From a virus (lineage: Duplodnaviria; Caudoviricetes): a DNA stretch of 52,467 bases. The notes below the pieces were generated by a model, which worked only from the letters and a program-made list of their open reading frames with translations, had not been told where the DNA came from and ran no database searches. Where the stretch lies: positions 1 through 52,467 of the IMG/VR virus record IMGVR_UViG_3300033153_006994. One strand, given 5' to 3'. This document shows, piece after piece, positions 9,774 through 27,344 of this stretch. A program made the translations under genes and the position numbers. Positions within the stretch are counted from its first letter, which is position 1; every line of letters begins with the position of its first letter.

Positions 9774-11963
9774 TTAGAGCAGAATGGGCAATTCAATTTC
9801 GATGTCCAAAGTTGTTGTGTTGACTGCACGACCAATACGCACCACATATTGTCCAGCGGCTGTAGGAGCCGTGGATGTGATCCGACCAGCAATGGATGGA
9901 TCAAGGAAGTAGGTAACACCAGCAGACAGAGTAGCCACACCGGTGATATCAGTCCAATCAGATCGTTCAATTCTACCTTCAGTAAGATAGTTGCAAGTGA
10001 ATGTAGGCGAAGTATCCGTGATGGATAATCCTACAACTTGCGTCGTTCCGGCAGCGTTAGCCCGAGCCGAGTTGACATGGCCAGCACCTGTGAGATACAA
10101 TGGGTTACCGATTATGATTGTTGAATCAGCCTCAGCGGAATGGTAATCAATTGTCTCTGGAGTTGCCGGTAAAATAGGATCATTTGGCATGTAGTATCCA
10201 CCTTCCTGCTCGGATCGGATTGCAGAGTATCGTTGAGAAGGTGGTACAACTTGAGGATTCCATGTAGGATCAAGTTCACCTTCAAAACTAAAACTAGCGG
10301 TGAAATTATCGAACCTGTCTTCAACGATAGGTTCATCTGGAGTCGTAATGATACCTTTCCAGTAACGATGCTCCCAATCGATCAATCCAATCTCTTTACC
10401 GAGATAGTCGTTGATAAATGCCAAGAGAGCATGTGCTTCTACGCGGTAAAGACCCGAGAAAGTGAGTACCAATGTCTGAATCTTTGGCCATATAGGATCA
10501 GCGAAGACTATCAAAGTTCCGCCACGAGTCTCTTGCAGGACTCGATTGAAAGCCAATCGATCTTTGTTACCCAAGTTGGGTGCCTTCAAGGAAACTGAAT
10601 CAGTCACGACCCCCATCGAAGGATAGACTAATTGGAATGGTACCTGAATACCAGCCATTGGTCCGCCGATTTCGGCGGGCGGTGGTGTGGGTGCATCCGA
10701 ATCAGAACTATCGCCAACGAATGGTGAGTATTGCCACCGGGTCGATCCAAGGATTAGAGTGTAGGTGGTAGACTGTTGAAGTCCAAGTGTTGATATACTG
10801 GCAAGTCCACGATCAATTGTTACAGCAGCAACACCTGTTAATGATAGTATGCTTATACTAGGTTTGCCTGCCACACCAACTGCTGTTTGAGACAGAACAA
10901 GCGTGCTTGTTGTACTCTCTTCTATTGCCTTTGGGATGGCTTTGTGACTGAAACTGAGCGAACTTGATGCCGAAGCACTTATACCTGTTGCCAAAGCAAC
11001 GTGGGCATTCGCTTTATGTTGAATCGGAATAACGGAGGAAGCTGTATGATTGATGTCAGAGACAACAGTAGCTTCATCACGTAGACCAGTAGCTACTAGT
11101 ACGAGTTCATCGACTTCCCAAACCTCTTCATATGTCGTCAACTCACTTGTTGCTGACACGTGAATCGGTTTCGTTACAATGTTATCGTGAGATAACGTCA
11201 GTGTGTTTGATGCTGTGAGAAATTGAGGATTGATTTTGGTAGTCTGACTGAATTCAATCTGACTCGTTGCATAGAGCTTCTGAACATGTTGCTTAGCAGA
11301 CTGAATCAGAGCTAACTGACTCGATGCCAGAAGTTCTTTTGTCGTTCTTGCATTTTGTACCAAGGTCAGTTGACTGAACCCTTGTAGAATCTTGTCAACA
11401 GAAGCCGTGTCGGTTAGAGTAAGAGTATTACTAGCATCTCTTGCTTTAACCTCGTCATCAGCATAATGAACGAGTGTCAATATACTAGTTGCCGAGGCTG
11501 TTATCAAACCTGAATTAACAGCAGAATCTGTCAATGCAAGAATCGAAGTTGCATCCTCCAAATGTGTCCCTGGAAAAGCAGTCTGCTGAGCCAATACTAG
11601 GGTTGAAGTACCAAACAGGTTCTTGATATTTGTATCGGCTAACTGAGTAAATGCTAATTCGCTTGTAGCGAATTTGTTGAGTTTTACTTGGAGAACAGAA
11701 TTCTGACCTAACGAGAGTGATGAACTACCAGACTTCTCAATAGTCATCGCATCACGAGCAGCTACTTGTGTAAGAATAAGTGTTGAACTTGCTGACTCCT
11801 CATAGATTTGAGAATCTGGAACCAGAACTTCAACCCTAACTCGGGACACATAAATCGTTCCTGTATCCTTCACAAGAGATTCAATTCTCTGACGTGATAC
11901 ACGAATTTCAGGGTCTTCTAAGATTAGAGCTTCAGTTCTCTGACGGGAAACACGAATAGCCAT
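9774..11963 (-). CDS. Multidomain tail scaffold: RVSRQ repeats + about 17 beta-strand repeats + Dit-like + DUF2190-like domain
   Basis: Domain paralogies visible within the window (to 4550..4948, 9280..9762 and 25732..26298). Confidence 0.7.
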   Translation of the reverse strand: MAIRVSRQRTEALILEDPEIRVSRQRIESLVKDTGTIYVSRVRVEVLVPDSQIYEESASSTLILTQVAARDAMTIEKSGSSSLSLGQNSVLQVKLNKFATSELAFTQLADTNIKNLFGTSTLVLAQQTAFPGTHLEDATSILALTDSAVNSGLITASATSILTLVHYADDEVKARDASNTLTLTDTASVDKILQGFSQLTLVQNARTTKELLASSQLALIQSAKQHVQKLYATSQIEFSQTTKINPQFLTASNTLTLSHDNIVTKPIHVSATSELTTYEEVWEVDELVLVATGLRDEATVVSDINHTASSVIPIQHKANAHVALATGISASASSSLSFSHKAIPKAIEESTTSTLVLSQTAVGVAGKPSISILSLTGVAAVTIDRGLASISTLGLQQSTTYTLILGSTRWQYSPFVGDSSDSDAPTPPPAEIGGPMAGIQVPFQLVYPSMGVVTDSVSLKAPNLGNKDRLAFNRVLQETRGGTLIVFADPIWPKIQTLVLTFSGLYRVEAHALLAFINDYLGKEIGLIDWEHRYWKGIITTPDEPIVEDRFDNFTASFSFEGELDPTWNPQVVPPSQRYSAIRSEQEGGYYMPNDPILPATPETIDYHSAEADSTIIIGNPLYLTGAGHVNSARANAAGTTQVVGLSITDTSPTFTCNYLTEGRIERSDWTDITGVATLSAGVTYFLDPSIAGRITSTAPTAAGQYVVRIGRAVNTTTLDIEIELPILL

Positions 11964-11979
11964 GGCAGTGTCCCCTCAG

Positions 11980-13011
11980 TTACGTGTTAGCTCTGATTCC
12001 AAATTGTGCGTCATTAACGCCGGAAGGTGTCCAAGCAGCAACAGTGTCGGGGTCTTGCTCTTCAACCCTTATAGTTGTAACATAAGATGTTGACGTGATA
12101 GTATCCGCTGTACCGGGGTATATTGTAGTCCCTGTCTTGATCAAGTTGCTCAAATCCATGGACCCCGCTGTTACCCTTGTCTCAGTGGTGATTTGAATAC
12201 CATCCACAGAAGCAGTAACTCCAGGAAGATTGTCGTAGGTATACAAGTCATCATCGGCATCCGTGCTTGTCTCATTGTATGTAGTATCTTCATCCAAAAG
12301 ACCACCATCATTGACGTTCTCGTAATTGCTCCCCGCACTAGGAGTCCAATCTGTACTATCACCAGCACCATCAGGATCAAGAGCGATAACTTTCCTGTTC
12401 CCAAGAAAATCATTGTTCACTGATCCCGAACCATCCAAGAAATAGAGATCATCAAACTTAACTACAACACCATTATATACGGCATCAGCAAGTCTAAATG
12501 CTGTGTGGTAAGCATTTGAACCTGGCTGTGTGTCTTGATTTGTTAAGGAAATAAAAGAAGTCCCATTGACTTTCACATCAACAGTTCCCACCGTATTACT
12601 TGTCAGCACTTTTGCTTCAAAATAAAACCAAGTATCAAAGGGGACCGCCGATGTTGAGGTTGCCAAAGTAATCGTATTCATCTTAGCAGTAATATATCCA
12701 GCCGATGTAACTGAGAAATTTACACCTAAATTTGCACCTTCGTACAATTTAATAATGTGAGTGTCAACAGTACACAATGGGATATAAATTGCCATACCGA
12801 TAATACATGTATCATCAGTTGTTAAATGGGGACTTTGTAAGTAACCTAGAGGATCAACTTCAAGACAATTCCCATATCGACCAGTCTCTATATCCATAAA
12901 TGCTTCTCTATTGACGATAGGATATTTACGACCAATGATCCCCGTTGGTGAAGGAGCACCTCCAATAGTAGTTCCAAAACCTTCAAAACCTTCAATCCAA
13001 AGTAATGCCAT
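11980..13011 (-). CDS. LamG/concanavalin-like virion protein, tail copy
   Basis: Start MALLWIEGFEG at 13011 after GGAG; TWFYFE...VKVNG...FDDLY lectin-like motifs; paralog of 26313..27344. Confidence 0.7.
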   Translation of the reverse strand: MALLWIEGFEGFGTTIGGAPSPTGIIGRKYPIVNREAFMDIETGRYGNCLEVDPLGYLQSPHLTTDDTCIIGMAIYIPLCTVDTHIIKLYEGANLGVNFSVTSAGYITAKMNTITLATSTSAVPFDTWFYFEAKVLTSNTVGTVDVKVNGTSFISLTNQDTQPGSNAYHTAFRLADAVYNGVVVKFDDLYFLDGSGSVNNDFLGNRKVIALDPDGAGDSTDWTPSAGSNYENVNDGGLLDEDTTYNETSTDADDDLYTYDNLPGVTASVDGIQITTETRVTAGSMDLSNLIKTGTTIYPGTADTITSTSYVTTIRVEEQDPDTVAAWTPSGVNDAQFGIRANT

Positions 13012-13030
13012 GAGAAGGCTCCTTATATGA

Positions 13031-13075
13031 AAAATGGTGACCAGGTTCGGGTCAAGACCCGAAGCCTGACCACCA
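13031..13075 (-). terminator. Intrinsic terminator after the 203-aa fibre subunit gene
   Basis: TTCGGGTC-aa-GACCCGAA stem with extended pairing, then ATTTTT on the minus strand. Confidence 0.6.
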
Positions 13076-13090
13076 CGAGGGAGAGATTCG

Positions 13091-13702
13091 TTAGGCACTG
13101 ACTGTGTATGTGACCTTCAATTGATCAGCACTGAGAACAGCCACATCACCAGAGAACAGAGCAGTCGCCCAAAGTTTATGTGCTGTACCAGCAGTGTGAT
13201 CACCCTTGACATTGGCATTAGTGCCTGCACAAAGGAAGAGACCTTTAACAGTACCGGAACCGGTAATGTCGAAAACCGTGACTGTATTGTTGGTAATCGA
13301 TTGAGCAGAAGCCGCAGCTTCATCCCAAACAGGTCGAGTCGTCGCACTGTCACCATTACCTGGATCAGTATACAGCTTGAATTCATCCCAACCGTTGCCC
13401 GCCTGATCGATGTCATCATACAGATCAGTACCATTGAGAGCCGAGAAGTTGAGATCATCAATCAGACCCATATACCAAGTGGTCATTGCGGCTACCGCAT
13501 GGAAATGAACATCGAGCAAGTGATTCTTGCCTTCGTTGACAATCCCATTGGGAAAGTGGTACTCATTGATCCTCTGGCCATTTCGCCAATGCTCAACTAC
13601 GTAATGACCACCGAGATCATTAAGATCATTGTGGCCACCGGTTTGGTTCTTGATTACTGTGGCTACCGCACTTTGACCAAGTTTCATTTCAGAGATAGAC
13701 AT
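13091..13702 (-). CDS. Putative high-copy fibre/decoration subunit
   Basis: Start MSISEMKLGQSA at 13702 after GGAG; NGIVNEG, WYMGL, DQLKVTY motifs typical of phage fibre building blocks. Confidence 0.65.
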   Translation of the reverse strand: MSISEMKLGQSAVATVIKNQTGGHNDLNDLGGHYVVEHWRNGQRINEYHFPNGIVNEGKNHLLDVHFHAVAAMTTWYMGLIDDLNFSALNGTDLYDDIDQAGNGWDEFKLYTDPGNGDSATTRPVWDEAAASAQSITNNTVTVFDITGSGTVKGLFLCAGTNANVKGDHTAGTAHKLWATALFSGDVAVLSADQLKVTYTVSA

Positions 13703-13765
13703 GTATTTCTCCACAGGGGAAAGAAGTTGATGAATAGGCACCACTATGATGCCCATCCAGATTGA

Positions 13766-16700
13766 CTAACGTGACGAACCTCGACGTTCTTCGCGACGGA
13801 TGGCTTTCATTACCTCACGAGCAACGATTGTGGGTTTACCAGCCCCACTAACATTGATATCGCCTACATTGGTATTATAGGTGTCCCCACCATTATTATG
13901 GAAAACTGGTTGTTGACCAGCATTCATCGCTTGCAATTGGGAGAAAAATCGTTGTGACGATCTTGCATTGGTAACATATTCTCCAGCAGAGAGCATTGCA
14001 GGAATGGTATCCATTCCACGACCGCCATTGGCAAAGTATCCGACTTGCCCACCCATTGATTGTTTAACGAATGGATTCCGAATGATAGGACCTTGCGCAG
14101 TTGAAACAGCCGCACTGACACTTCCAAGAGTCCCCAGCAACTGTTGAGCCTTCCCATTGGCTGCTTCAAGTCCAGAAGACATCTGTTGAATACCTAAATT
14201 GGTGTTACCAATTTCAGCAGTAACAGCCCCTTGAGTACCTTGCAGTTGCATTGCTGCTTGAGCAGTCTGTTGGACTTTCGTTGGCTGTTCAGCAACAGTT
14301 TGGGAACTTTCCTGTACAGCTTGAGTCAGAGCCTTTTGGGACTGTGTAGCGGCGTTTGTCTTAGACTTGTTGGCATCAATCGCTGCTCCAATCTGCTGGT
14401 TTGCTTTTGCAATTTCGATAGCTTTTTGAATTTGTGCATCTTGCAGTTGTCCAGACTTCAGCATATTCGAGATTTGCAATTCCTGTTGACCCACACCTAA
14501 TCCTGCCCCGGCAGCTTCTTGCAATGTTGGGAGTTTGATAATGGCATCATTCAATGCTTGCAAAGCACCCTCTGCATGAAAACCACGGGAAGCAAGATTT
14601 TCCAATTGTTTGGTCAGAACTTGAACTTGTTCTGGCTCAAACCCCTCCTTGAGTCCCTTATTGATACTCGCTAGGATAACCTCAAAATCAGCAAATTGTT
14701 GCGGCTTGTCACCAATTTCCTTGATTGCTCTTCCGGGTCCTTTTGATAGAGCTTCAAAAAATTCACTGAAGGCTTCACCGGTAGTAACATCCTGGAGACT
14801 AACAAGGGTCGCCCTAATCTTTTGCATCTCGTTATCAAGGGCTGACTGAGCCTGCTTAGCAGCATTGAGTGCAGTGGCTTGCTCTTCCACAGTTTGGGTG
14901 AACTGCCGCATAACCTCGTCAACTTGTTTTGGAGTGTCTATCGCCAACCCTCGCTCTGCGGCGAAAAGTTGAACTTCGACTGGAATCTTTTGGAAGAAAT
15001 CATCAGCAGCATCACGAATCATCCCAAAGATTTCTTGCATGTTCGATGGGAGGGTCATGATTGTATCAATCTCGACCGTTATGTCTCGTGCCTCGATTTC
15101 TTGAAAAAGTTTCCTTACGAGAGGATCAGCACTTTGAGCGAACTCTTCAACTCCTTTCGTGTACGTCTCAAGGTAATTGTCAACAGCTACCTGGGCTTCC
15201 TTTGCCAACTTGGCTTGATCTTCAGGCGTCAAGTCCTTATCTGAAGCTGCCTCCTGGGCTTCAGTCATCTTCTTGATGAGAGAATCCAAATCAGCCCTAT
15301 ATGCAATAATCCCACGTCCAGCTTCAGCTAAACCTTTTGCCCCTTCTTTAGTGACAATTTTTCCTTTCTCAGTTGCTTTCACATAACGATCCTGACGGAT
15401 AGCCAAGAATTTCGATAGATCAGCAGCAATGCGAGTTTCGTTGTTAGACTCTGCAATCCCGAACGCTTGCTCATGGAGAGCAACGAATCTACTCTGAGCA
15501 GCCCTTGCTGCATCAAAATCAGCTTCCGCTGCCAATTTTTGTGCTAAGACATTCTCTTCAGCAGCCTTCTTTCTCAAAAGAGAGATTTGAAGAATAGGAT
15601 CATCCTTGGCAGCTTTGATACCTCGTTGGAACAGGATATCTTGGACTCTTTTAGTCGAGCTTGCTTGCTCCTGTGTAGCACGAGCTAATGCCTTATCGAC
15701 TTCAGCGGCAGCTTTCGTGATCACTGAGATCGCTGCATCCACAGGACCCATCATACTATCGATAGCCCACTGTGTACTCGCAGCAATTACTTGGTTGGCA
15801 TCCTCAGCAGCATTAGCTGCTGCTATGAATTCCTTTCGAGCAACGGCGGCATACTGAGCCAAGAGTTTAGCCCGCTCTGCGAGTGCATCCTTTTCATTTT
15901 GAAGTTCCTTTGTGAGAAGGTCTGCATGAGCCTTGCTACGTTCATCATATGCTCTTGTGATATGCTCGACTTCACTTGTAACCGCGCCTTCAAATCTGCC
16001 AAATACGTTAGCAAGACCAGAAAGGAATTGCTGCCCAAAAACATCAATGAAGGCGTTCTTGAGTTTATTCACTGCCTTGGTAACTTTTTCAGCATCAGTC
16101 GTGATGATCAGATGATACGCTTTATCATAAACCTCACCAAGAGCATCTTTCTGTTCCTTCATTGATTTGTTGAAATGACCTAACTCATCATCAGCCAGAC
16201 CTAAGACACCGGTGAGACCTCGAATACGTGGGAAAAGTTTAGCGATTGCCGCCGCACTTCCATCTGTCGTAGCCGCGATTGCTTTGATAGCCTCTTGAAG
16301 ATTATGGGCTTCAAAAACTTGTTCACCAGTCTCAAATCCCAACTCTCCCATCGCATCTTTCATAGCCTCAGTAGGCTTCAAGAATGCTTGCATCGCGCCT
16401 CGAATCTGAGTGACTACCTTGTCAGTTTTGAGTCCTTGAATAGTGAGTGTAGCTACTGCCGCATTCAATTCCTCCATGGAGATTCCAAGTTTATAAGCAA
16501 TAGGATTGATTGTACCCATACCCTGTGCTAACTCTTCAGCCCTGGTACGACCAAGTTTGATCGTATTAAAGAACTTGGCGGCGACATCTTCTGTCTCAGA
16601 GACTTCCTTTCCAAAGGCATTCAAAGTACCAGAAAGGAGGTTGACCGCTGTAGTCATATCCGTCTTGGTAATCTTGGAAAACTTAGCGGCTGAACCCAGG

Positions 16701-17356
16701 AAGGCTTCAACATCCTTCTCAGTAGAGGCAATCTGATTCGATACTGTTTGATAAGCGGCTTCTGTAGCATCCGCAAGTTCAACATTAAAAGTATTCGAGA
16801 CACGTAAAACCATGTCTTCGATCTTTTCCAGACCACCCAATCCACCTGCGATTGTTCCGATTTCCGCTACTGCTTTTTGGAAAGCGATGGCTTCAGTAAC
16901 AGCATCACTGAGTGCATTTCTGATTGCATTAAGAGTACGTACAATAGCTTGAGTCATGATGACTCGACCCAAAGTCTCCCAGGAAATAGTCCATTTTTTC
17001 GTTTTCTCAGCAGCATCATCGGCTGCCTGACCCGTCTTTTTGCCAGCAGAACTTGCCGCCGCGCCAATCTTATCCAATGCAGATGCCGCTTGTGTTGCAG
17101 CCACATTTGTAGCATCCAGTTTGGTTACACTGGATTGCTTATTCAAATTGGCCATCTGAGTGGCAGCACTACTGGCAGATGTCTTCAATCTCTTGAGGAC
17201 ACCATCGGTCTTGTCAGCCTTCGCATTGAAACTCCCCAGAACCTTTGTTGTGCTACTTACAGCCGACTTAAAGGATCGCATGACTCCATCGAGTTGGTTC
17301 AAAGTCTCAATCGCTTGAGCAGCATTGAAGCCTAATGTTTGTTTGATTTCGGCCAT
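13766..17356 (-). CDS. Tape measure protein (TP901-like core)
   Basis: 1196 aa, Ala/Gln-rich helical; core motifs (AAYQTVS, LGISMEEL.AA.A.LT..G); C-terminal DTIPAMLSAGEYV. Confidence 0.93.
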   Translation of the reverse strand: MAEIKQTLGFNAAQAIETLNQLDGVMRSFKSAVSSTTKVLGSFNAKADKTDGVLKRLKTSASSAATQMANLNKQSSVTKLDATNVAATQAASALDKIGAAASSAGKKTGQAADDAAEKTKKWTISWETLGRVIMTQAIVRTLNAIRNALSDAVTEAIAFQKAVAEIGTIAGGLGGLEKIEDMVLRVSNTFNVELADATEAAYQTVSNQIASTEKDVEAFLGSAAKFSKITKTDMTTAVNLLSGTLNAFGKEVSETEDVAAKFFNTIKLGRTRAEELAQGMGTINPIAYKLGISMEELNAAVATLTIQGLKTDKVVTQIRGAMQAFLKPTEAMKDAMGELGFETGEQVFEAHNLQEAIKAIAATTDGSAAAIAKLFPRIRGLTGVLGLADDELGHFNKSMKEQKDALGEVYDKAYHLIITTDAEKVTKAVNKLKNAFIDVFGQQFLSGLANVFGRFEGAVTSEVEHITRAYDERSKAHADLLTKELQNEKDALAERAKLLAQYAAVARKEFIAAANAAEDANQVIAASTQWAIDSMMGPVDAAISVITKAAAEVDKALARATQEQASSTKRVQDILFQRGIKAAKDDPILQISLLRKKAAEENVLAQKLAAEADFDAARAAQSRFVALHEQAFGIAESNNETRIAADLSKFLAIRQDRYVKATEKGKIVTKEGAKGLAEAGRGIIAYRADLDSLIKKMTEAQEAASDKDLTPEDQAKLAKEAQVAVDNYLETYTKGVEEFAQSADPLVRKLFQEIEARDITVEIDTIMTLPSNMQEIFGMIRDAADDFFQKIPVEVQLFAAERGLAIDTPKQVDEVMRQFTQTVEEQATALNAAKQAQSALDNEMQKIRATLVSLQDVTTGEAFSEFFEALSKGPGRAIKEIGDKPQQFADFEVILASINKGLKEGFEPEQVQVLTKQLENLASRGFHAEGALQALNDAIIKLPTLQEAAGAGLGVGQQELQISNMLKSGQLQDAQIQKAIEIAKANQQIGAAIDANKSKTNAATQSQKALTQAVQESSQTVAEQPTKVQQTAQAAMQLQGTQGAVTAEIGNTNLGIQQMSSGLEAANGKAQQLLGTLGSVSAAVSTAQGPIIRNPFVKQSMGGQVGYFANGGRGMDTIPAMLSAGEYVTNARSSQRFFSQLQAMNAGQQPVFHNNGGDTYNTNVGDINVSGAGKPTIVAREVMKAIRREERRGSSR

Positions 17357-17358
17357 GG

Positions 17359-17853
17359 CTATATCCTATGTCGAGTGACTTTGAGTGATTTCCACGGAGA
17401 TGGCAACTCAATTTCTTTTGCCAACTTCTCAAATGCTCTTTGACCAACTTGTTGGAAATGATAAGGTCCAGGCTTCTTCAATTTGCCCCAGACATTGGGA
17501 TCACTCTCAGGAGTGTTGTACTCATTGTGAACAAGCCAACGAAGGTCTGTTGAATACTCAAACTTGTACTCGACTTTTTGCTTGTCTGCTATCAAGGCTC
17601 CATCACCATGACGTTGACCATATGATATCCGATTGATCGCTTCGGGACTAATTGCGAGCGTGCTTCCGATAGCTCTGGACAATCTGGTAAAAGTAGCCCA
17701 TGAAGCCCCTGACCAAATTGGAATCTCTTGCAGAACTGCCTCTAACCAAACAGAAGCTGCATGAGCGATCTCTTCTGAAAGATTCTCATGCAATCTTCGT
17801 TGGTAATCTGCCATGTCCATTTCAACACTAATGAGTCCGCCTGTAAATTTCAT
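17359..17853 (-). CDS. HK97-gp10-like neck/tail completion protein
   Basis: IPIWSG, NEY and PYHF motifs; size; structural operon context. Confidence 0.5.
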   Translation of the reverse strand: MKFTGGLISVEMDMADYQRRLHENLSEEIAHAASVWLEAVLQEIPIWSGASWATFTRLSRAIGSTLAISPEAINRISYGQRHGDGALIADKQKVEYKFEYSTDLRWLVHNEYNTPESDPNVWGKLKKPGPYHFQQVGQRAFEKLAKEIELPSPWKSLKVTRHRI

Positions 17854-18052
17854 GGTCAGTAATTCTCCAGGTAATCACGGATACTGAACCTCTGAGCAGG
17901 TATTGTTAGAGAAGAGACTATAACCATTGTTCTTGTTCTCGGTTTCGTTCTGCTAACATGTTAGGGTTTCACTTCCTTGCAAATCCCATAATTGTATTGC
18001 TTGGGCAGGTCTCCACTATTGTCCATAATCAATAGTCCTATCAATGGTTCTA

Positions 18053-18295
18053 TCAATGGTGTTTCTTGGAAGAGGAAACCATAGGACAACCCATGGTTTC
18101 CTTTTCGTCATATTGGCAAATTTGATCATATGCAAGAATCGCTGCCTGTGTTTGTACACCATTGTCATCCCATATGGGATTGACACCTGGAGGGAGGATG
18201 CCTATTCGGAGGCAGGCTCTCCAGATGGCGTACTCTCCGGTGCGATATTTAGGCCAGAGGATTCGCTTGGAACCGGAGCCTGCCCACGTAGAAAA
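18053..18295 (-). CDS. Tail assembly chaperone -1 frameshift extension (gpT-like)
   Basis: Open -1 frame from TCT TTT CTA reading STWAGSGSKRILWPKYRTGEYAIWRACLRIG...KKHH-stop at 18053. Confidence 0.7.
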   Translation of the reverse strand, partial: FSTWAGSGSKRILWPKYRTGEYAIWRACLRIGILPPGVNPIWDDNGVQTQAAILAYDQICQYDEKETMGCPMVSSSKKHH

Positions 18296-18754: not shown

Positions 18755-18792
18755 AAAAAAAGTCTGGGGTGAGTAGTGACCTCACCCCAGAC
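18755..18792 (-). terminator. Intrinsic terminator after the tail tube genes
   Basis: GTCTGGGGTGAG / CTCACCCCAGAC 12-bp stem followed by T7 on the minus strand. Confidence 0.85.
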
Positions 18793-18799
18793 GTAAAAC

Positions 18800-19837
18800 T
18801 TACGATTGTGACGTTCGCGTCACTGTCGGTTGAATAGCGTTACATCGACCAGAAACAGCAACGGATGCTTCACCCAGATCGGGTTCACGACTTTCCGAAC
18901 GGAAGTCCGGGAATACTGTTGTTTCAATTTCCTGTGTGGTGCAAATCGGGGTGTGAACTACTTCCACGTCTATGGCATAGGGCTCACACGGATCAGCAGA
19001 ACTGGAGACCCATTCAGAAGCCCCGCCGATTTTCTTCAGGGCGTCCATTGGCGAAATTTCTTCACCTGTACCTGTTGTGATATACTCATAAACAAACTCA
19101 AGACTGAGATCAAGTGGAATTTGATCCCCGGCGCGAACAGTATCGAGAACCCCTCGGTCGAGATCGTATTCGTATTCATTCGCTTCGGTGTAGGTCAGAT
19201 TACCATCGCCGATTTTGATTTCGAGTTGTTGTGGAAGAAACGTGATCACATCACTGTTTGCGGGCAAATCGCCAGCATCCAACGCCGGTGTGAATGTTAG
19301 TTCCCAGGAGGTCGCTCCAGGACGTTTCACAGTGATATTTTCAGCACTGGAAGCATTCGTCAAACTTGTCCCGTCAATAGTCATCAATGCCACATCGGTA
19401 GCAAGGTACTGTCCACGATATTCGATGTCGAATGGACCCAAAGATGCACCAGTAACAATTACATCACCAGCATCGATACTAGTCAAGCCTTCCAAAGCTG
19501 TTTGAATTTCAGATGCTGTAGCATCATAGTTAATAGCCCCAGTGGGACCTTCACCATCCCAAGACAAGGTAAATGTACCCGCTGTGGGCGTATCCAGATC
19601 AAGTGTCTGAACTTCGTTGGAGTTGACAGCGGTAATCGTGAAAACCGTGTCAGCCACGGTATCAATCGAAAAGCGAACGCCAACAGGGACAATCGTGGTT
19701 GAAGCGGGTGTGCCGGATAACGTATCAATTTCCAGGGTCGTATTCGCCCCGGCAATTGATGTATCGTCGACCAGAGCCGCTCCAGCCCAGCCATCTCGAA
19801 ATCGGATGACACAGTTCTTCAATTCGATGCGCGCGAT
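18800..19837 (-). CDS. Tail tube protein 2 with larger inserted domain, ATC start
   Basis: Highly similar C-terminal half to 19849..20607; begins ATC GCG CGC ATC GAA TTG AAG aligned to MARIELK; AAGGAGGT SD 5 nt upstream. Confidence 0.85.
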   Translation of the reverse strand: MARIELKNCVIRFRDGWAGAALVDDTSIAGANTTLEIDTLSGTPASTTIVPVGVRFSIDTVADTVFTITAVNSNEVQTLDLDTPTAGTFTLSWDGEGPTGAINYDATASEIQTALEGLTSIDAGDVIVTGASLGPFDIEYRGQYLATDVALMTIDGTSLTNASSAENITVKRPGATSWELTFTPALDAGDLPANSDVITFLPQQLEIKIGDGNLTYTEANEYEYDLDRGVLDTVRAGDQIPLDLSLEFVYEYITTGTGEEISPMDALKKIGGASEWVSSSADPCEPYAIDVEVVHTPICTTQEIETTVFPDFRSESREPDLGEASVAVSGRCNAIQPTVTRTSQS

Positions 19838-19848
19838 GATACACCTCC

Positions 19849-20607
19849 TTACTGGGCAGTACGGGTGATTGTGGGTTGAGTCACATTACAACGACCTGAC
19901 ACGGAGATGGTAGCTTCGCCAAGATCGGGCTCACGACTCTCAGAACGGAAATCCGGGAAGACAGTCGTTTCAATCTCTTGTGTCGTACAGATCGGCGTAT
20001 GGATGATCTCTATGTCAACAGCGTAAGGCTCACACGGATCAGCGGACGAACTTCGCCATTCGGTGGCTCCACCGATTTTCTTCAGAGCATCCATTGGGGA
20101 AGTGGTTTCACTTGTGCCCGTAGTGACGTATTCATAGACGAAGTCCAGAGACACATCCATGGGTACTTGGTCACCAGCCCGAACGGTATCAAGAACGCCT
20201 CGATCGAGATCGTACTCGTACTCATTCGCTTCGGTGTAGGTAACATTGCCGTCACCGATCTTGATCTCCAATTCGATAGCCTGGAAGGTAATCACACCAC
20301 CATCGACATACGTACCAGCACCGAGTGCGGGCGTGAAGACAATGTTGGTTGTGGTAGCCGAACCATCAGAGGGCGTTCGCTCAGTAACGGTATGGACTTG
20401 TGTGGTGTCGGTTTCACCAGCAACCAAGAACTTCGCACCAATCGGAACCACATCGGTTCCAAGACCACCTGCATTAAGTACGAGAGTGTCGATGTCGAAC
20501 TCGGTGTCGGTCACAACAGGGGCAGTGGTTGGTTCATTGATAGCTCCGGTTCCACTAAGACCGTCTTTCAGCTTAATTACACAGTTTTTGAGTTCGATGC
20601 GAGCCAT
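19849..20607 (-). CDS. Major tail tube protein 1
   Basis: Position between tail terminator and chaperone; AGGAGG SD; tube-like beta-rich sequence. Confidence 0.85.
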   Translation of the reverse strand: MARIELKNCVIKLKDGLSGTGAINEPTTAPVVTDTEFDIDTLVLNAGGLGTDVVPIGAKFLVAGETDTTQVHTVTERTPSDGSATTTNIVFTPALGAGTYVDGGVITFQAIELEIKIGDGNVTYTEANEYEYDLDRGVLDTVRAGDQVPMDVSLDFVYEYVTTGTSETTSPMDALKKIGGATEWRSSSADPCEPYAVDIEIIHTPICTTQEIETTVFPDFRSESREPDLGEATISVSGRCNVTQPTITRTAQ

Positions 20608-20741
20608 AGGGTAAACCCTCCTAATTAAATGTTATTGGGGTTTTACCCCTTTAGTTGAAAAGAGAACACAGTCGATTTTGCCCTTCGTCGGGCATCACGT
20701 AAAGTTGAATAGTTAATCCCTAAGCCTTGTGGCGGCGTCTT

Positions 20742-21647
20742 TTATGCTTCCATACTCGACGCCATTGATAGCGACTTTTTTCGCTTTGGGTGGTAATCAA
20801 AGACATTTGAACCAACTTTTTTCCTTGCACTCCACATAGTCATATAACAAACTTTTAGAGCCTTAGCTGCCGATTTGATACAATTATACTTAATTCCATT
20901 TACAGTTAATATGATTGCTTTTGGATGTTTCCCACATTGCATTGAAGGTTTAGATTTTCCTTTTCTAATCTCACTTAATTTCTTTCGGTGTTCAAGCGAG
21001 AGAGTTTTCCCTTTATGGGCTTCACTCATTTTTCGTCGAGCTTCATCAGAATGAAGTCTTTTCTTTTTACCCTTATGAGCATCCCCAATTTTCTTTCGAT
21101 GTTCAAGCGAGAGAGTTTTTCCTTTATGGGCTTCACTCATTTTTCGTCGAGTCTCGTCTGAGATGTTTCTACCAGCCTCACTCATTTTTCGTCGAGTTTC
21201 TTCAGAAGGATTTTTGTGCCCTTCAGATATTTTACGACGAGTCTCTAATGAATGAGTTTTCCCTTTTTGAGCTTCACTCATCTTCTTCCGTGTTTCTTTT
21301 GAAGTAATCTTTCCCCTATGAGCCTCACCTATCTTACGACGGGTTTCTATTGAAGGTCTTATTCCTGTCGAACCTTCTCCACCTATCGTCAGATTGTAAC
21401 CTTTAGGTCCGAATGTTTCCAATATACGAATGGCTCGAATTTCCATTTCCTTAATGTATTCTTCAAGACCCTTACAAATAATCCTAAATTCAAAGGCTTC
21501 CAGACCATATTTTTTGATGGCTCTTTTCACAAGGAGAGAACCATACCCACTTTTATGCTCTTTACACCTTCTTTCAAAGTTATTGGTTATCCCCACATAC
21601 ATCCGACCGTTTACATGATTGGTAATTGTGTAAAGATAAAGGAACAT
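20742..21647 (-). CDS. GIY-YIG homing endonuclease with NUMOD3 repeats
   Basis: YLYTITN...MYVGIT..RR...H core, GYN motif, many [12 protein letters not shown] repeats. Confidence 0.92.
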
Positions 21648-21650
21648 GCA

Positions 21651-22142
21651 CTAATCCTTTGAAAGAAACATTTCATATCTGGCGTCAATTACCGATTGTT
21701 TCACCCTATCAGTCGGGTCCACTTTGCCAAAGTGTATCACTCGAACAGTATCATTTTTCCCCGAGCGAGGAACCAAACAACCCAGGTAACTATCATCATC
21801 TTCCACTCCGCTACCATACTTGTAGATGAGAATTGCTCTGTCCATGGCAGAGTGAAAGAGACCCGCGTTTGTCAGGATCGAATGTCGGTTCTTCTGTTTT
21901 CCATCGAAACGACTTGTCAGAACTACATTAACGTCCATTTGGATGCGATACTCACCAGACATTTCCTTAGTGAAAGGACCACTGATACGAATCTCAACAT
22001 GATCTGTTGCTTCTGTGAATGTATCCGTCTCGTCATCAACCCCTTCAACGATAGCTTCGATACCATTGGCATCAGCGACTGCATTCAAGGTCTTTGCGAT
22101 AGAGGCAAATATCCACCTTGCCCAATTGGGGTTAGCTGGCAT
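21651..22142 (-). CDS. Tail terminator-like protein
   Basis: Size and position immediately before the tail tube genes. Confidence 0.55.
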   Translation of the reverse strand: MPANPNWARWIFASIAKTLNAVADANGIEAIVEGVDDETDTFTEATDHVEIRISGPFTKEMSGEYRIQMDVNVVLTSRFDGKQKNRHSILTNAGLFHSAMDRAILIYKYGSGVEDDDSYLGCLVPRSGKNDTVRVIHFGKVDPTDRVKQSVIDARYEMFLSKD

Positions 22143-22629
22143 TTCCTGCTCCTTGTAAATCGAGGAGATTATCAGCTTTCAACAGGTGAATTTGTTCAGG
22201 AATTTCTCCGACAAGTTCTCGACCAACAATAATCCAACCAGCATCAAACTCGTATTCTTGAAACGATTCAATTTCGTACTTTCGATTACGATAGATGATG
22301 TAGGTATTGTTGGTAATATCAAGAGTAAGAGCATCTTCGCGATCAATGATGAAAATGCGACGACCGGCATCATATGTTCCGCCCACAACGAACATCTTGT
22401 TCGCAGAAATTTGAGAGATGCTCTTTCTAACCTCTCGTTGCATTCGAGCAGGTAATACAATGGCACGATCAACATGCACTACATCCTTGACTAATGAGAC
22501 TACACCAGTTTCCTGATCCGTCCCAGAACTGACAAGAGTATAAATATCGATAGTGCCGCCATATTGTCGCTTCAGCATATAGAGCGTACGAACAATAGTA
22601 CGCCTGAGGGCTAATTCGGCAGGATACAT
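22132..22629 (-). CDS. Head closure (stopper)-like protein
   Basis: D.ETG and IIYRNRKYEI motifs typical of head-closure proteins. Confidence 0.6.
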   Translation of the reverse strand: MYPAELALRRTIVRTLYMLKRQYGGTIDIYTLVSSGTDQETGVVSLVKDVVHVDRAIVLPARMQREVRKSISQISANKMFVVGGTYDAGRRIFIIDREDALTLDITNNTYIIYRNRKYEIESFQEYEFDAGWIIVGRELVGEIPEQIHLLKADNLLDLQGAGNAS

Positions 22630-22640
22630 GGCGGTCTCGC

Positions 22641-22925
22641 TTAATTGAGGGTCCGATCAATAGCATTACTCAGGCGTTCCATTACCTTCATGTTTGCTTC
22701 CATCACTTGTGTATTCTTAGTAATCACTTCCGTGCAACTTTTTACGAGGGGAAGAATAACTTCTCGTTGTTCATTCTCAAGTTCTTTGATTCGTGTTGTG
22801 AGTATATCTTCGCGACGATAATCGCGCCAGATAAAGAATACCACTGCGGCTATGAATGGTCCATAATTTTGGAAGAGCCATCCCATATCTGACAATCCAT
22901 TAAAAGCGAAAAGAAAATCCATCAT
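22641..22925 (-). CDS. Single-TM coiled-coil protein, holin-like
   Basis: YGPFIAAVVFFIW transmembrane segment then coiled coil; GGGGAG SD; Met-Met start. Confidence 0.5.
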   Translation of the reverse strand: MMDFLFAFNGLSDMGWLFQNYGPFIAAVVFFIWRDYRREDILTTRIKELENEQREVILPLVKSCTEVITKNTQVMEANMKVMERLSNAIDRTLN

Positions 22926-22945
22926 ACTATCTCCCCTAGCAAATT

Positions 22946-22990
22946 GAAAAGAAAGGCGTACCCTCCGGGAGTATCCCGGAGGGTAGCCTT
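22946..22990 (-). terminator. Intrinsic terminator after the capsid gene
   Basis: TACCCTCCGGGA-gta-TCCCGGAGGGTA stem followed by TTTCTTTT on the minus strand. Confidence 0.85.
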
Positions 22991-23005
22991 GAACATTACA
23001 GGGGT

Positions 23006-24397
23006 TTAGCCAAGCACAACACACGCGAGGTCGGTGTCGAGGACAGCCAGACCAGCGAGCATGTCACAGTTGACCTGAGTACCACCAGCGGATTGGCTGT
23101 ACTGCATCGTAACACGCATCGAGATGCCATTGTAGCTGGCCACACCACCGACAGCGCCAGTGCCCGCTCGCGGAAGGGCGAGAGGTCGTGTGATCAATGC
23201 AAGGGCTTCGCGATGGAACGCAAGATTCATGTTACCTTGGGGACCGGGGAAGGCAGCCGCACCGTCAGCAACGGCGACTTCCAAAGGACGGTCAAGGATA
23301 AGATCGTTACCATCGATCTCGATAACCGTGTAAGTCCGACGACTAGCACCAGTACCAAAAGCACAGAGTTGCCCGATATTCCAGTAAGCAACATTGTCCA
23401 TACCAATTTTCTTGGTCCAACCAATATCATACGTACCAGCAGTTGGGTGATTGACCGTATCTGACGTATAAGCAGTCACGACCGCGCCAGCGCCAGTCGC
23501 ATACTTCAGAGGCTCATTGAGAGTGAAATCCGTGGTCGCACCAGTGATAGCTGTGCAGTAGGTCGGCTGATCGTTACCGGCAACATTGATGAACTCACCA
23601 ACGACGGTGGCACCAAGAGTACAGGCAATCACACCAGCGTAACCGGCAGCATGGGCATTCGTTGCTGTACCAGCAATCGAGGTGCCAGTGATAAGACTCG
23701 GCACGTTCTGACCCATCCAGGTATTGAACCCGTAGATTTGACCCAGTTTGGCCATCTCAAGGGCTGTTCCATCATCACCCCGCTCATTTGCCTTCACGAA
23801 GATATCATTCTTCAGCAAGGCAGTTTCGCTAGATGAAGTCAAGAGCAGATGTCGTTGTCGATCCATTGGAGCCAAGTTGTCATTCAACACTTGGCGAGCA
23901 TCCAGCACAACCTCATTAGAAGTCGCGGAGGGAAAATTCTCCAACCGACCAACACGATTCGACACGGTGCCGAAGAACTGTTGAACCTGACCTGTCACGG
24001 AACGATCAACACCATTAGCAATGCTGAGCATGGCGGGTCGCAGGTAAACCTGCACCAAGTCTTTGAAAGACAGGCTTTCCTCACCATCATAAATGGTGAA
24101 GGGCTGAGTGAACCACTGATCCAAGACCACTGGCACATTCGTGCTCACGGCATCCTGATAGCTCAAAGTGTCGCCATCAACCTTACGGGCGATCTTGAAC
24201 TTATTAGGTCGACGAGTGTTGACTACATCGCCGTATCGTTGAACTTCATTCTCGAAGTCACGGTGGACCAAGTGAGCCATCACCATGTTTTCTTCGAGAA
24301 TCATCAAACCTTCATTCGCCCAATGTTCAGGGACGAAGGCATCATTGTCATTGGCGAAACAGGTCACTTGGGCCACACAGAGGTAAAGCGAATTCAT
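23006..24397 (-). CDS. Major capsid protein (P22 coat-like, with inserted domain)
   Basis: PEHWA...LVHRDFENE...GDVVN, G.IYGF and NLAFHREA.AL.TRPL motifs; follows scaffold, followed by terminator. Confidence 0.9.
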   Translation of the reverse strand: MNSLYLCVAQVTCFANDNDAFVPEHWANEGLMILEENMVMAHLVHRDFENEVQRYGDVVNTRRPNKFKIARKVDGDTLSYQDAVSTNVPVVLDQWFTQPFTIYDGEESLSFKDLVQVYLRPAMLSIANGVDRSVTGQVQQFFGTVSNRVGRLENFPSATSNEVVLDARQVLNDNLAPMDRQRHLLLTSSSETALLKNDIFVKANERGDDGTALEMAKLGQIYGFNTWMGQNVPSLITGTSIAGTATNAHAAGYAGVIACTLGATVVGEFINVAGNDQPTYCTAITGATTDFTLNEPLKYATGAGAVVTAYTSDTVNHPTAGTYDIGWTKKIGMDNVAYWNIGQLCAFGTGASRRTYTVIEIDGNDLILDRPLEVAVADGAAAFPGPQGNMNLAFHREALALITRPLALPRAGTGAVGGVASYNGISMRVTMQYSQSAGGTQVNCDMLAGLAVLDTDLACVVLG

Positions 24398-24469
24398 TTT
24401 GTTGTTCCTTTAAGAACGGTGACAGAGTTTGATATACGAACTTACCCCCGAGGGCAAAGATGGTAGTGT

Positions 24470-25351
24470 TTACATTCCGACAAGTTCGGGGTGTTCTTTT
24501 CGGATTTTTCGATATTGAGCAGGTGTCAGCTTACTCACATCGATAGGACCACCGTCACCCGATGCTGCGCCACCGGTAGCGTTATTGGCACCCAAACCAG
24601 AGACAACATTCGCTTTGAAGAGATTGGCATGTAGACGGATCTCTCGCATTCGTTTTACAATCTCGTCAGGTGTCCCAGAAAAGGTTACCTTCTCTCCCTT
24701 ATCATCATGGTCAGGAAAATTGACAACCGGCTCAAAACGACCAGTCTCATTTTCATTATCGTCAATAACGGGAATCAACTTTGTCATTGGACGAAGAAGC
24801 TGAACAATATGGTCAATGTTGTAGGCATCATTGTTCACCGCTGCATCTTGTAAGGCGCGATCGATACTCGAACCATGGAAACGATCTTCCCAGATTTTGC
24901 GAGCTTCTCGTTCGGTTTTCAACTGCACTTCGTAATCGTTTTTCAGTTGTTCTTTCTCGTGCTTGGCACGTTCCTCTTTGGTCCTCAATTGATTCTGAAC
25001 ATTTTCCAACCGTTCCTCAGCTTTGGAACGCTCTTCATCAGAAAGAGTTTTATGTTCCAAGAGTTCATTGTAACTAGATTCCAGAATTTTGTATTCTTCT
25101 TTTCGAGCAGCTTCACGACTCTTGCGGTCTCTCGCAAGACGCTCTTCAACGATCTTGTTGACGGCGGCAATATCAAATGTCTTACCAGCGCCAGCACCAG
25201 CACCAGCACCATCACCATCACCAGCACCAGCACCAGCACCAGCACCATCACCATCACCATCACCATCACCAGAACTTCCACTGGAACTAGTAGCGCCTTC
25301 GCCGTCGAAACAAGAAATTTGAGAAACGAACAAATACTTTTCATCAAACAT
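24470..25351 (-). CDS. Capsid scaffolding protein
   Basis: Start MFDEKY at 25351 after GGAG; GAGAGDGD linker, FD...VNKIV..RLAR, coiled coil, C-terminal LTPAQYRKIR. Confidence 0.85.
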   Translation of the reverse strand: MFDEKYLFVSQISCFDGEGATSSSGSSGDGDGDGDGAGAGAGAGDGDGAGAGAGAGKTFDIAAVNKIVEERLARDRKSREAARKEEYKILESSYNELLEHKTLSDEERSKAEERLENVQNQLRTKEERAKHEKEQLKNDYEVQLKTEREARKIWEDRFHGSSIDRALQDAAVNNDAYNIDHIVQLLRPMTKLIPVIDDNENETGRFEPVVNFPDHDDKGEKVTFSGTPDEIVKRMREIRLHANLFKANVVSGLGANNATGGAASGDGGPIDVSKLTPAQYRKIRKEHPELVGM

Positions 25352-25459
25352 GGAAAATCTCCAAACGATACCCGCTGAAATGTTAAGCCATATTAGTAGC
25401 GGTAGACTTAGTATGGCAAGGTAAACCTGACTTACACAGTCAGTCAACTTGAGTTTTGG

Positions 25460-26298
25460 CTAAATCCGAGATAATATGATTGCATCATCATCACGAAGAT
25501 ACGGTCGCAACAAACGCCAGGCTTGTGTGCTAGGTACACCGTTGATGATGTGTTCAATAGGGACTTGTTCCTTATTGTGACTTACAACTTCACCTTGAAA
25601 ACCATAGCTCTTGATGCCCAAGGCTTCAAGTTCTATGTTGGGATCTTTCCCATCAAGTAATGAGTGGGCAATCTCATAAGTCGCCACTCTGATTTCTTCT
25701 GGAACTTCCATGTCGGCATCCCGAGGAAATTCTAAAAACTGTGATGCTTCCGCCACTCGAATTTCTTCATGGGGGGGGGGGCGAATGGATTACTTTGCAG
25801 AACTTCGTATACGGGATGTTTATTTCCTTTGTAGTTTAAGGTGTCGAGAATCAGTGTTGCTGCCCAAAGGGCTTTCTCGCGATCAATTGCTTTTGATTGA
25901 GACCAAGTACGTTCGTGAAGACGTTGGGCGAAATACGCATTGGCTTCATGAATTGTCCCATAGTACTCAACTGTGATATGGTTAGTTGCAACACTCAAAC
26001 TTTGTTGCAAAATGAGAACTGATGAACCAACTCCGAAGTAGATGTTGACAGGTGCCAACACTTCTACTATTTGTCGTGACATGCAGAGATTAGATTTCCC
26101 TACATGGAGTACTTCAACTAATTGACGTGAGACAGCTAGACCAGGATCATCTTCACCAAGCAACTCAACATGTTGTCTTGAGACTCTAGCATTGAACTCT
26201 CGGAAGCCTAATATCTCAATGGTTTGTCTTGAAGTCCTTAGACTCGAAGATTCTGTGTGCAGAACTTCGACAAACTGTCTTGAGACACGGATTGCCAT
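25460..26298 (-). pseudogene. RVSRQ-repeat / head-tail adaptor fusion gene, out of frame at a C11 tract
   Basis: ORFs 25732..26298 and 25460..25756 together align with 27354..27875; frame breaks at G11 (25771-25781). Confidence 0.8.
25771..25781. repeat. G11 homopolymer (C11 on coding strand)
   Basis: Direct read; the longest homopolymer noticed in the window. Confidence 0.95.
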
Positions 26299-26312
26299 AA
26301 TAATGCCTTCCG

Positions 26313-27344
26313 CTAGATGGCCTTGATACCAAATTGTGCGGCATCAATCTCGGCAGGTGTGTAGGGATTAGATGTGTCAGGATTCACTTCACTAATAGAA
26401 GAACAAGTTACATAATCCGTTGAAATGATCGTTCCGCATGACTGCGCATTTTCTGTCGAACCTGATTTGGTGATATTTTGCAATTCCATACTCCCCGAGG
26501 TAGCTTTCACCTCAGTTATGATTTGGATACCATCAATCGAAGTCATATTGATCGCAGGATCATAGTTGTACAAATCCTTATTTGTTGTTGTACCCGTTTC
26601 AACATATGAAGTATCTTCATCCAATTCCATTTCGTTGATTCGGTCATAATTAGTTCCTGAATCAGGAATCCATTGTGTAGAATCACCGGCAGCATTAGGT
26701 CGAATTGCGGAAACTTTGCGAATCCCGAGGAAGTCATTATTGATTGAACCAGAACTATCCAGAAGATAGAGATCATCATATAGGGTCGTTACATTACTGC
26801 TTCCTAATCTGAAAGCCGTAGCATAGGCATGAGAACCTATTTGTGTATCAATGCCAGAAAGAGAAAGCCAATTATCAGTGTTAATCACCAAATCAACAGT
26901 ACCTGCTGACGCATGGGTCAATACCTTTAACTCAAGATAGTACCAAGTATTGGAAGATAATGCCAAAGCAGAGGTGCCAAGTAAAACATTATCCAAGTAA
27001 ACTGAAAGAGTGCCATTCGTATTGACACGGATATTTACAGCTAATGATGTACCATCATAAAACATCATCAATTTACTAGGCAAGACGCTTGGAGTTGAAA
27101 GTATCTTGATTGCTGCACCAAATACCAGAGTATTATCCGTAGTCAAGTCAGGACTTTGGATATAACTCTCAGCACCAATGGCATAATAAATTGCTAAGCA
27201 AAATCCATTTCTTCCATTTTGAATCTTCATCTCCGATTCACGATTGATAACCGGATACTTACGACCAATGATACCTGTTGGTGAAGGAGCATTCCCAATA
27301 GTAGTTCCAAAACCTTCAAAACCTTCTATCCAGAGCAAAGCCAT
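26313..27344 (-). CDS. LamG/concanavalin-like virion protein, neck copy
   Basis: Full-length paralog of 11980..13011 (MALLWIEGFEGFGTTIG.APSPTGIIGRKYP ... AQFGI). Confidence 0.75.
   Translation of the reverse strand: MALLWIEGFEGFGTTIGNAPSPTGIIGRKYPVINRESEMKIQNGRNGFCLAIYYAIGAESYIQSPDLTTDNTLVFGAAIKILSTPSVLPSKLMMFYDGTSLAVNIRVNTNGTLSVYLDNVLLGTSALALSSNTWYYLELKVLTHASAGTVDLVINTDNWLSLSGIDTQIGSHAYATAFRLGSSNVTTLYDDLYLLDSSGSINNDFLGIRKVSAIRPNAAGDSTQWIPDSGTNYDRINEMELDEDTSYVETGTTTNKDLYNYDPAINMTSIDGIQIITEVKATSGSMELQNITKSGSTENAQSCGTIISTDYVTCSSISEVNPDTSNPYTPAEIDAAQFGIKAI

Follow-up and report, generated by a model that had tools for sequence, protein, structure and literature searches.

The window, i.e., the whole stretch of DNA analyzed here, is a linear IMG/VR virus record of 52,467 bases (IMGVR_UViG_3300033153_006994) with a CheckV completeness of 51%. 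It raises the question why the same pair of genes occurs twice in the structural module of one phage, once beside the tail genes and once beside the neck genes. Each pair consists of a gene for a protein of 343 amino acids (aa), called head in the following, and a downstream gene starting with MAIRVSRQ, called anchor, whose product begins with tandem repeats of 17 aa. The initial annotation had noticed both pairs and suggested that each repeat donates a missing strand to one lectin-like head. The analysis described here leads to a related answer with a different acceptor domain: a split-domain docking system for accessory virion proteins, in which the heads are hung onto structural proteins via a donated strand, is regarded as probable. 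All genes of the structural module, including both head genes, are located on the minus strand. The genes and repeats in question are:

11980..13011, minus strand: head 1 (tail module), 343 aa, two-domain build, match to phrog_2448 with E 1.7e-35
26313..27344, minus strand: head 2 (neck module), 343 aa, built as head 1, match to phrog_2448 with E 6.6e-35
9774..11963, minus strand: tail anchor, 729 aa, starting with MAIRVSRQ, comprising 3 docking repeats, about 17 repeats of about 20 aa, a Dit-like domain and a C-terminal domain
11817..11957, minus strand: three 17-aa docking repeats, tail anchor residues 3-49 (IRVSRQRTEALIL, IRVSRQRIESLVK, IYVSRVRVEVLVP)
25732..26298, minus strand: first frame of the neck anchor, 188 aa, starting with MAIRVSRQ, repeats plus the N-terminal half of an adaptor paralogue, match to phrog_477 with E 2.6e-5
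26050..26292, minus strand: five 17-aa docking repeats, neck anchor residues 3-83, all five with at least 9 bits in the hidden Markov model (HMM) of the repeat

Head 1 and the 729-aa tail anchor are separated by 16 bases, head 2 and the 188-aa open reading frame (ORF) of the neck anchor by 14 bases, and the two heads are 51% identical (176/348 columns, E 1e-115). The gene pairing was thus read correctly from the start. Taken from its ATG, head 1 begins with MALLWIEGFEGFG and ends with AQFGIRANT (the mechanical ORF list has a GTG start at 13098), and the C-terminal end of head 2 is AQFGIKAI. The matches to phrog_2448, a family of PHROGs without function or structure annotation, span nearly the whole profile, with positions 35-333 of 335 for head 1 and 2-332 of 335 for head 2. 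No Pfam family was found for either head at E up to 0.1, including Laminin_G_3 (PF13385), and the head profile gave no match to PDB sequences.

The repeat unit consists of LRV[ST]RQxVEVL and a 6-residue linker. A six-frame motif scan of the whole window yielded 21 matches, eight of which form two arrays with an exact spacing of 51 nucleotides (17 aa), three at 11823-11954 and five at 26056-26289. The period and the copy numbers given in the initial annotation are thereby confirmed. The other 13 matches are scattered singly, several of them with stop codons.

The claim that a strand is missing was examined on the heads themselves. An AlphaFold2 model of head 2, based on an alignment of 48 sequences, reached a mean predicted local distance difference test score (pLDDT) of 94.2 and a predicted template modeling score of 0.90. 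In this model, a jelly roll (about residues 1-196) and a second beta domain (216-343) are joined by residues 197-215, which have no regular secondary structure. According to a fold search with model residues 1-212, the jelly roll is a complete two-sheet fold of the ConA/LamG-like type. Contrary to what had been assumed, the repeat strand is therefore not needed by the LamG-like domain; it is the C-terminal beta-sandwich that lacks its last strand. Heads folding as complete sandwiches had been named as an outcome that would speak against docking; this was found for the jelly roll, but not for the truncated C-terminal domain.

The truncation was recognized by comparison with a protein of 1216 aa (P0124), which carries the C-terminal domain of the heads alone at its N-terminus and extends beyond the point at which the heads stop. 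Here, the domain continues with a short loop and the strand VGVTQVYVEVNY. A search seeded with this region found the complete C-terminal domain in 114 long proteins with 141 copies, of which 126 terminate in a strand with the consensus R-C-T-Q-V-Y-V-E-V-D-Y. Aligned to this complete domain of about 165 aa, the head family gave an hhalign probability of 99.7% (E 9.9e-27, 138 columns, 31% identity), with head residues 207-343 mapping to columns 7-151 of the 188-column profile. Since the heads end at column 151 of 188, only the loop and the last strand are absent from their C-terminal domain.

This absent strand resembles the anchor repeat, whose consensus is L-R-V-T-R-Q-Y-V-E-V-L-G-P. Aligned on YVEV, repeat and strand share 6 of 11 residues (R, T, Y, V, E, V). 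When the anchor-repeat HMM was run on the long proteins, all 12 matches of at least 2 bits were located at the last strand, and reversed sequences gave none; the scores are low, at most 3.5 bits. The truncation is found throughout the family as well. With an E limit of 0.001 the head profile matched 23,873 clusters, and with a limit of 1e-30 it still matched 7,784. Among the 150 best cluster representatives, 145 extend to the end of the profile; in 143 cases the protein stops no more than 4 residues from there, and the other two are fused to anchors. Judged by these alignments, the heads are a truncated form of a complete beta-sandwich domain, and the truncation is the rule of the family.

The complete domain itself has no Pfam model, and two proteins carrying it gave no match to PDB sequences. 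It is also found inside long tail proteins, like the one with PF06605 (P0171). Among the metagenomic long proteins (P0125-P0237) it often occurs in two to three copies per protein and adjoins Laminin_G_3, DUF2341, fibronectin type III or Prophage_tail domains. Some of the proteins with the complete domain originate from assemblies of Chloroflexota, Patescibacteria and Omnitrophica.

The proposed insertion was modeled as a complex of head 1 (48-row alignment) and residues 1-60 of the tail anchor (33-row alignment). Three runs gave interface scores (ipSAE) of 0.93, 0.93, and 0.47 (median 0.93), and the best of three controls reached 0.14, so that controls of both kinds, with the partner replaced or with the head replaced, stayed at or below this value. 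The score mark applied is reached by 58 of 80 solved complexes and 2 of 110 mismatched pairs, counts which are rough for models made with own alignments. The anchor chain has a pLDDT of at least 50 in the complex. In the best run, a single repeat forms the anchor side of the interface, namely the third one together with its linkers (residues 33-52). The repeat strand is predicted to run antiparallel to head residues 273-280, and its other side to touch residues 203-213. Further modeled contacts involve head residues 232-249 and 327-343 as well as the conserved N-terminus (3-11).

The head residues of this modeled interface are conserved, with a mean entropy of 1.20 bits vs. 1.84 elsewhere (p 5e-7). 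For the ten interface residues belonging to the jelly roll the entropy is 0.45 vs. 1.88. Between the two heads of the window, 49 of 72 interface residues are identical vs. 124 of 271 elsewhere (p 9e-4). A conserved docking interface would account for the conservation of the family from the very start of the protein (MALLW.EGF), although the jelly roll is variable otherwise.

A survey of gene neighborhoods, which had been suggested as a check of the pairing, was made in IMG/VR. From 318 relatives, 77 viral loci with 80 head arrays were kept. Repeats are located on the same strand at most 700 nucleotides downstream in 71 of the 80 arrays. Among the nine arrays without repeats, four leave the locus end (L039, L051, L077, L078), three have divergent repeats in their translations (L055 second array, L058, L079), and two have other genes downstream (L010, L071 second array). 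In the loci and the window together, the repeat HMM gave 181 matches of at least 8 bits vs. 2 in reversed sequences. Matches of at least 9 bits are found on the head strand and downstream of heads only, except for a second site in L011 and L027 (about 3.8 kb on) and one in L045 (about 400 nucleotides on).

Some heads are encoded alone, others in tandem with up to 8 paralogues in a row. Long arrays, with 5 to at least 8 heads, were seen in L029, L032, L036, L043, L046, and L077, the last of which leaves the locus end. Their members are 28-40% identical to the head of the window, and all of them retain the N-terminal MALLW.(D/E)GF.

Several kinds of carrier follow the heads, in line with the suggestion of the initial annotation that the system can be grafted onto different virion parts. 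A tail-type anchor with a conserved domain of 150 aa is present in 64 of the 77 loci. The neck order of a plain head-tail adaptor, head(s) and a repeat-adaptor fusion was found in four loci (L005, L006, L009, L064). Small stand-alone anchors are a third kind, with a 117-aa protein in L049 and a 104-aa protein in Mesorhizobium phage Cp1R7A-A1, where it follows two heads and has about five divergent RVS-type repeats recognized by eye. Additionally, a scan of genome contigs, which used one peptide pattern and yielded four loci, found a head followed by a repeat gene in two loci of metagenome-assembled genomes (Pirellulales, Anaerolinea).

Homologues with the strand in cis, for which a search had also been proposed, are represented by the 114 long proteins and by natural fusions. 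In the three fusions P0121, P0122, and P0334, a head, a short linker, one strand and the anchor form a single chain, giving a ratio of head to strand of 1:1. The fused proteins gave no match to Pfam. Two of them (P0121, P0122) terminate in the same Dit-like domain as the tail anchor. The truncation found by hhalign, the strand match, the complex model, the adjacency of the genes and these fusions support the earlier proposal that the repeats are the missing terminal strand, provided in trans.

The reading of the tail anchor depends on its own domains and on the genes before it:

10749..11801, minus strand: about 17 repeats of about 20 aa, tail anchor residues 55-405, pattern A-[ST]-S-x-L-x-L-x-Q-x-A
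10239..10676, minus strand: Dit-like domain with putative tail-tube fold, tail anchor residues 430-575, pLDDT 80-88
9777..10088, minus strand: last domain of the tail anchor (C-terminal, residues 626-729), a paralogue of the product of the next gene (9280-9762)
13766..17356, minus strand: tape measure protein, marker of the tail module, PF10145 with E 1.2e-24
13091..13756, minus strand: 221-aa protein, encoded between the genes of the tape measure protein and head 1, match to phrog_8123 with E 6e-10

The monomer model of the 729-aa protein is poor (pLDDT 41.6), with residues 1-420 below 50 and residues 440-575 alone being confident. A Foldseek search with the whole model yielded nothing with an E value of 1e-3 or lower; its top match, the Dit of TP901-1 (4v96), has 7e-3. 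For the Dit-like domain, all 50 of the VIA matches listed are tail-tube, Dit or Hcp folds with Z 5.4-8.1, among them the Milano baseplate (8.1), p2 Dit (2wzp_P, 7.9), lambda gpM (8iyk_M, 7.7) and T5 pb9 (6.2). Atlas structures of the PF05939 (gpM-like) and PF09343 (DUF2460) clusters were found with template modeling (TM) scores of about 0.5. By sequence, no match to a Dit family was seen: the anchors gave no Pfam match, 50 sequences of the domain gave no relevant one, and the comparison of the domain with PDB sequences gave none beyond one chance match at E 1.2. The position of the gene is the one typical of Dit, with the order tape measure, 221-aa gene, head(s) and anchor in the window and in 64-70 of the 77 loci. 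The tape measure gene lies upstream of the heads in 66 viral loci and a homologue of the 221-aa protein in 70 of 77, which makes the latter a fixed member of the cassette. Based on the tail-tube-type folds and the place after the tape measure gene, the 729-aa protein is likely a distal tail protein that carries an extended arm at its N-terminus.

The repeats of about 20 aa in this arm were listed by a motif search with 13 matches at a spacing of 18-21 aa, and their pLDDT is below 50 in the monomer model. They may form a fibre or represent a second type of docking strand. Most anchors have similar repeats, and so do the fused proteins P0121, P0123, and P0334. The last 104 residues of the tail anchor match the 160-aa product of the gene at 9280-9762 (phmmer E 2.4e-18). 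This 160-aa product shows a weak match to Phage_cement, the family of E217 gp24 and Pam3 gp6, with E 1.9e-4, which is below the cut-off.

The second carrier is located at the neck, where the following features complete those given above:

27354..27875, minus strand: plain head-tail adaptor Ad1 upstream of head 2, 173 aa, match to phrog_477 with E 1.2e-10
25460..25756, minus strand: second frame of the neck anchor, the C-terminal half of the adaptor paralogue, 69% identical (67/97) to Ad1 residues 76-172
25771..25781, minus strand: run of 11 C (G on the plus strand) at the frame change of the neck anchor, the sole homopolymer of at least 9 bases in the window

Ad1 also matches PF20557 (DnaT_2) with E 4.5e-5 and 23.8 bits, under the cut-off of 27. 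The N-terminal half of the neck anchor is 59% identical to Ad1 (39/66), and together with the second frame the neck anchor is, from these alignments, clearly a paralogue of Ad1. The statement that the five-repeat gene is fused to a duplicated head-tail adaptor therefore stands, though the fusion is split between two frames here. For a single frame, the C run would have to be longer by one base or shorter by two. Contigs of relatives across the C run, from four sequencing runs of three samples, lack 5, 5, and net 65 bases, and in each case the gene is back in a single frame. The sequencing runs contain at most 0.10 of the sampled words and represent relatives of this phage. Furthermore, the neck-type fusions are intact in the four loci with neck order, having 258 (L005), 293 (L006), 243 (L009), and 265 aa (L064). 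The break in frame at the C run may go back to an error of assembly, to a real mutation or frameshift, or to a tract of variable length, and the relatives with an intact frame need neither a programmed frameshift nor phase variation at this site.

The two gene pairs lie within one structural module. Its genes are, in sequence, a terminase (PF05876), an endonuclease VII-like gene, a 596-aa ORF, a 100-aa gene, Ad1, head 2, the repeat-adaptor paralogue, a 325-aa ORF and a P22-like coat protein (PF11651). Smaller genes follow, then a GIY-YIG/NUMOD3 endonuclease, two tail-protein paralogues, the tape measure, the 221-aa gene, head 1, the 729-aa anchor and more tail genes. The 596-aa ORF (28193-29983) is in the portal position and gave no Pfam match, and the 325-aa ORF is called scaffold from its gene position alone. 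The adjacent tail-protein paralogues (18800-19822 and 19849-20607) are 58% identical over the C-terminal 250 or so residues. An additional N-terminal portion of the longer paralogue weakly matches a FlgD Ig-like domain (E 2.3e-6), and weak matches to PHROGs of major tail proteins were seen for the product of 18800-19822. Just upstream of these paralogues, a likely homing endonuclease of the GIY-YIG type with four NUMOD3 motifs is encoded at 20742-21647. A second likely homing endonuclease, endonuclease VII-like, is encoded at 29961-30548 between the terminase and the 596-aa ORF. A megablast search with 19 kb against cultured phages gave no match.

From these parts, the following mechanism can be proposed. 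The C-terminal beta-sandwich of the head would have lost its last strand, with a complete and variable jelly roll remaining as first domain. Structural proteins would donate this strand in trans in the form of tandem N-terminal repeats of 17 aa, the carriers in this phage being the Dit-like tail-tip protein with three repeats and the head-tail adaptor paralogue with five. One repeat would insert as a beta-strand antiparallel to residues 273-280, beside residues 203-213 and the N-terminus, which would give one head per repeat. This way, the heads would be fixed to the tail tip, and also to the neck wherever the adaptor fusion is intact. The Dit ring is trimeric in lambda; if it is trimeric here as well, three repeats would be present on each of three chains. 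Several repeats may be occupied at once, and the variable jelly rolls may bind or cut host surface glycans and so aid adsorption. The arrays of one to eight head paralogues would lead to a mixed display; since the numbers of paralogues and repeats are uncorrelated, these arrays are taken to share sockets.

What the displayed domain does can be approached through its fold. The jelly roll resembles lectins, carbohydrate-binding modules (CBM) and lyases with Z 13-18 at 5-15% identity, and its Foldseek E values range from 1e-7 to 1e-5. Cip1 (3zyp) was matched with Z 17.9 and a root-mean-square deviation of 2.3 over 173 aligned residues. Modules of phage baseplates are found as well, namely Douge 8zdo_a (Z 14.3), the J-1 Dit CBM2 (13.9) and TM4 gp23 (13.2). 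The two-domain build of the heads recurs in many phage proteins of BFVD (TM score normalized to the query 0.7-0.87), one of which, from Achromobacter phage AchV4, bears the name virion structural protein.

The best of the alternatives accepts the docking as proposed and takes the heads for polysaccharide lyases or depolymerases, which would remove the capsule or slime in front of the receptor. Lyases are indeed among the best fold matches, with polysaccharide lyase family 20 (PL20, glucuronan lyase 2zzj; Z 17.6, Foldseek E 1.1e-7), PL14 (5gmt, 17.4), the alginate lyase 6kcv (16.8) and vAL-1 of a Chlorella virus (14.7), and a homologue in Pam4 was named polysaccharide lyase by its depositors. 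However, this likeness is one of fold only, with 8-14% identity to the lyases and 5-15% to every jelly-roll match. Non-catalytic modules score equally, like Cip1, the binding domain of AbnA (16.2), the J-1 Dit module, sialidase lectin domains and CBM66. In addition, the jelly roll is more variable than the second domain (entropy 1.80 vs. 1.57), which fits binding surfaces, and its most conserved residues are those of the docking interface. An enzymatic role of this kind is considered unlikely on balance.

A second alternative concerns the fate of the complex: the heads could be assembly chaperones, bound to the repeat strands only during folding or assembly and missing from the mature virion. 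The chaperones of chaperone-usher pili are well established to act by donor-strand binding, residues 1-420 of the tail anchor are predicted to be disordered alone, and the head gene is located directly upstream of its would-be client gene. A chaperone, though, would leave unexplained why the heads, in arrays of 1-8, are diverged paralogues whose lectin-like domain varies, why heads and anchors are fused to single chains and why the complete domain is built into long tail proteins, so that this role appears quite improbable. Finally, that the repeats are an oligomerization or fibre element of the anchors, with the adjacent heads being inherited synteny of one lineage, agrees with the gene order shared by most loci (tape measure and 221-aa genes) and with the disagreeing contacts of the complex runs, but is hardly credible, as the repeats follow heads on unrelated carriers (Dit-like proteins, adaptor paralogues, the 104- and 117-aa proteins), match just that strand which the heads are without, and score far above both kinds of control in the complex model.

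The docking of heads on donated strands is thus preferred. The truncation, the match of repeat and strand, the conserved gene pairing and the confident interface model are computed results, and there are several points which speak against this reading. The evidence consists throughout of sequence analysis and models, and the complex was predicted from own alignments. Contact agreement between its three runs is at least 0%, and one run scored 0.47; different repeats may have been chosen in each run. The modeled interface comprises 20 anchor residues vs. a period of 17 aa, which may hinder full occupancy of the repeats. In this contig, the reading frame of the neck anchor is broken. Since 66-70 loci share the tape measure and the 221-aa gene, the 71 pairings are not independent and represent mostly one broad phage lineage. 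The number of head paralogues correlates weakly with the number of repeats (rho 0.21, p 0.08), and one paralogue per repeat is therefore not claimed. The label "virion structural" comes only from the name of the AchV4 fold relative. A role of the heads on glycans is a suggestion drawn from fold likeness.

A wider reading can be put forward tentatively, with somewhat less than even confidence. In a widespread plug-and-socket display, the split-off strand of about 11 residues would act as a portable tag, and any virion protein with rows of this tag could carry interchangeable lectin or enzyme heads. Up to 8 paralogues would compete for the tags, resulting in mixed and quickly evolvable specificities on neck and tail of a particle or within a burst. 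If the docking is true, it would be a simple general rule for the attachment of accessory binding proteins in many uncultured phages, given the 23,873 clusters of the family. It would assign a role to the large family phrog_2448 and to N-terminal repeats of tail proteins which appear disordered when modeled alone. Moreover, tag and receptor would form a small natural pair, a candidate for hanging new binding modules on phage particles, and the splitting of a domain in evolution would have turned a covalent decoration into an exchangeable one. A literature search, with subscription journals and supplements outside its coverage, found no description of the pairing of heads and repeats, and as far as these searches show the truncation of phrog_2448 and its partner repeats are apparently undescribed.

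The proposed docking can be compared with three known systems. In chaperone-usher pili, a beta-sandwich without its last strand is completed by another polypeptide, which is known as donor-strand complementation. Likewise, the sandwich of the heads is without its last strand and would be completed by a foreign strand, the insertion being modeled. The heads matched no Pfam family, and no homology to pilins, chaperones or ushers was seen for them. Unlike in the pili, the setting is a phage particle, and the strands are arranged in tandem on a scaffold, so that one chain could hold several heads.

In the phage TP901-1 (BppU-BppL) and in the branched tailspikes of G7C and CBA120, adaptor domains hang several receptor-binding proteins on one tail. 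The tail anchor would be similar to these as a tail-tip scaffold protein with docking sites for separately encoded proteins. However, these phages dock their proteins via folded trimeric domains, whereas here the docking unit would be a single strand of 11 residues every 17 residues, and it is found on a neck protein as well.

The placement of the heads recalls the lactococcal 936 phages (Skunavirus), for which carbohydrate-binding modules are reported in the neck passage structure, in evolved Dit proteins and in tail extensions (PMC6669499, PMC10688798). As in these phages, lectin-like modules at neck and tail tip would serve as accessory adhesion devices, their placement being predicted in the present case. 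In contrast to the lactococcal modules, which are reported to be covalent inserts in Dit, Tal, tail or neck proteins, the heads described here are separate gene products, occur in arrays of paralogues and are predicted to be attached non-covalently.

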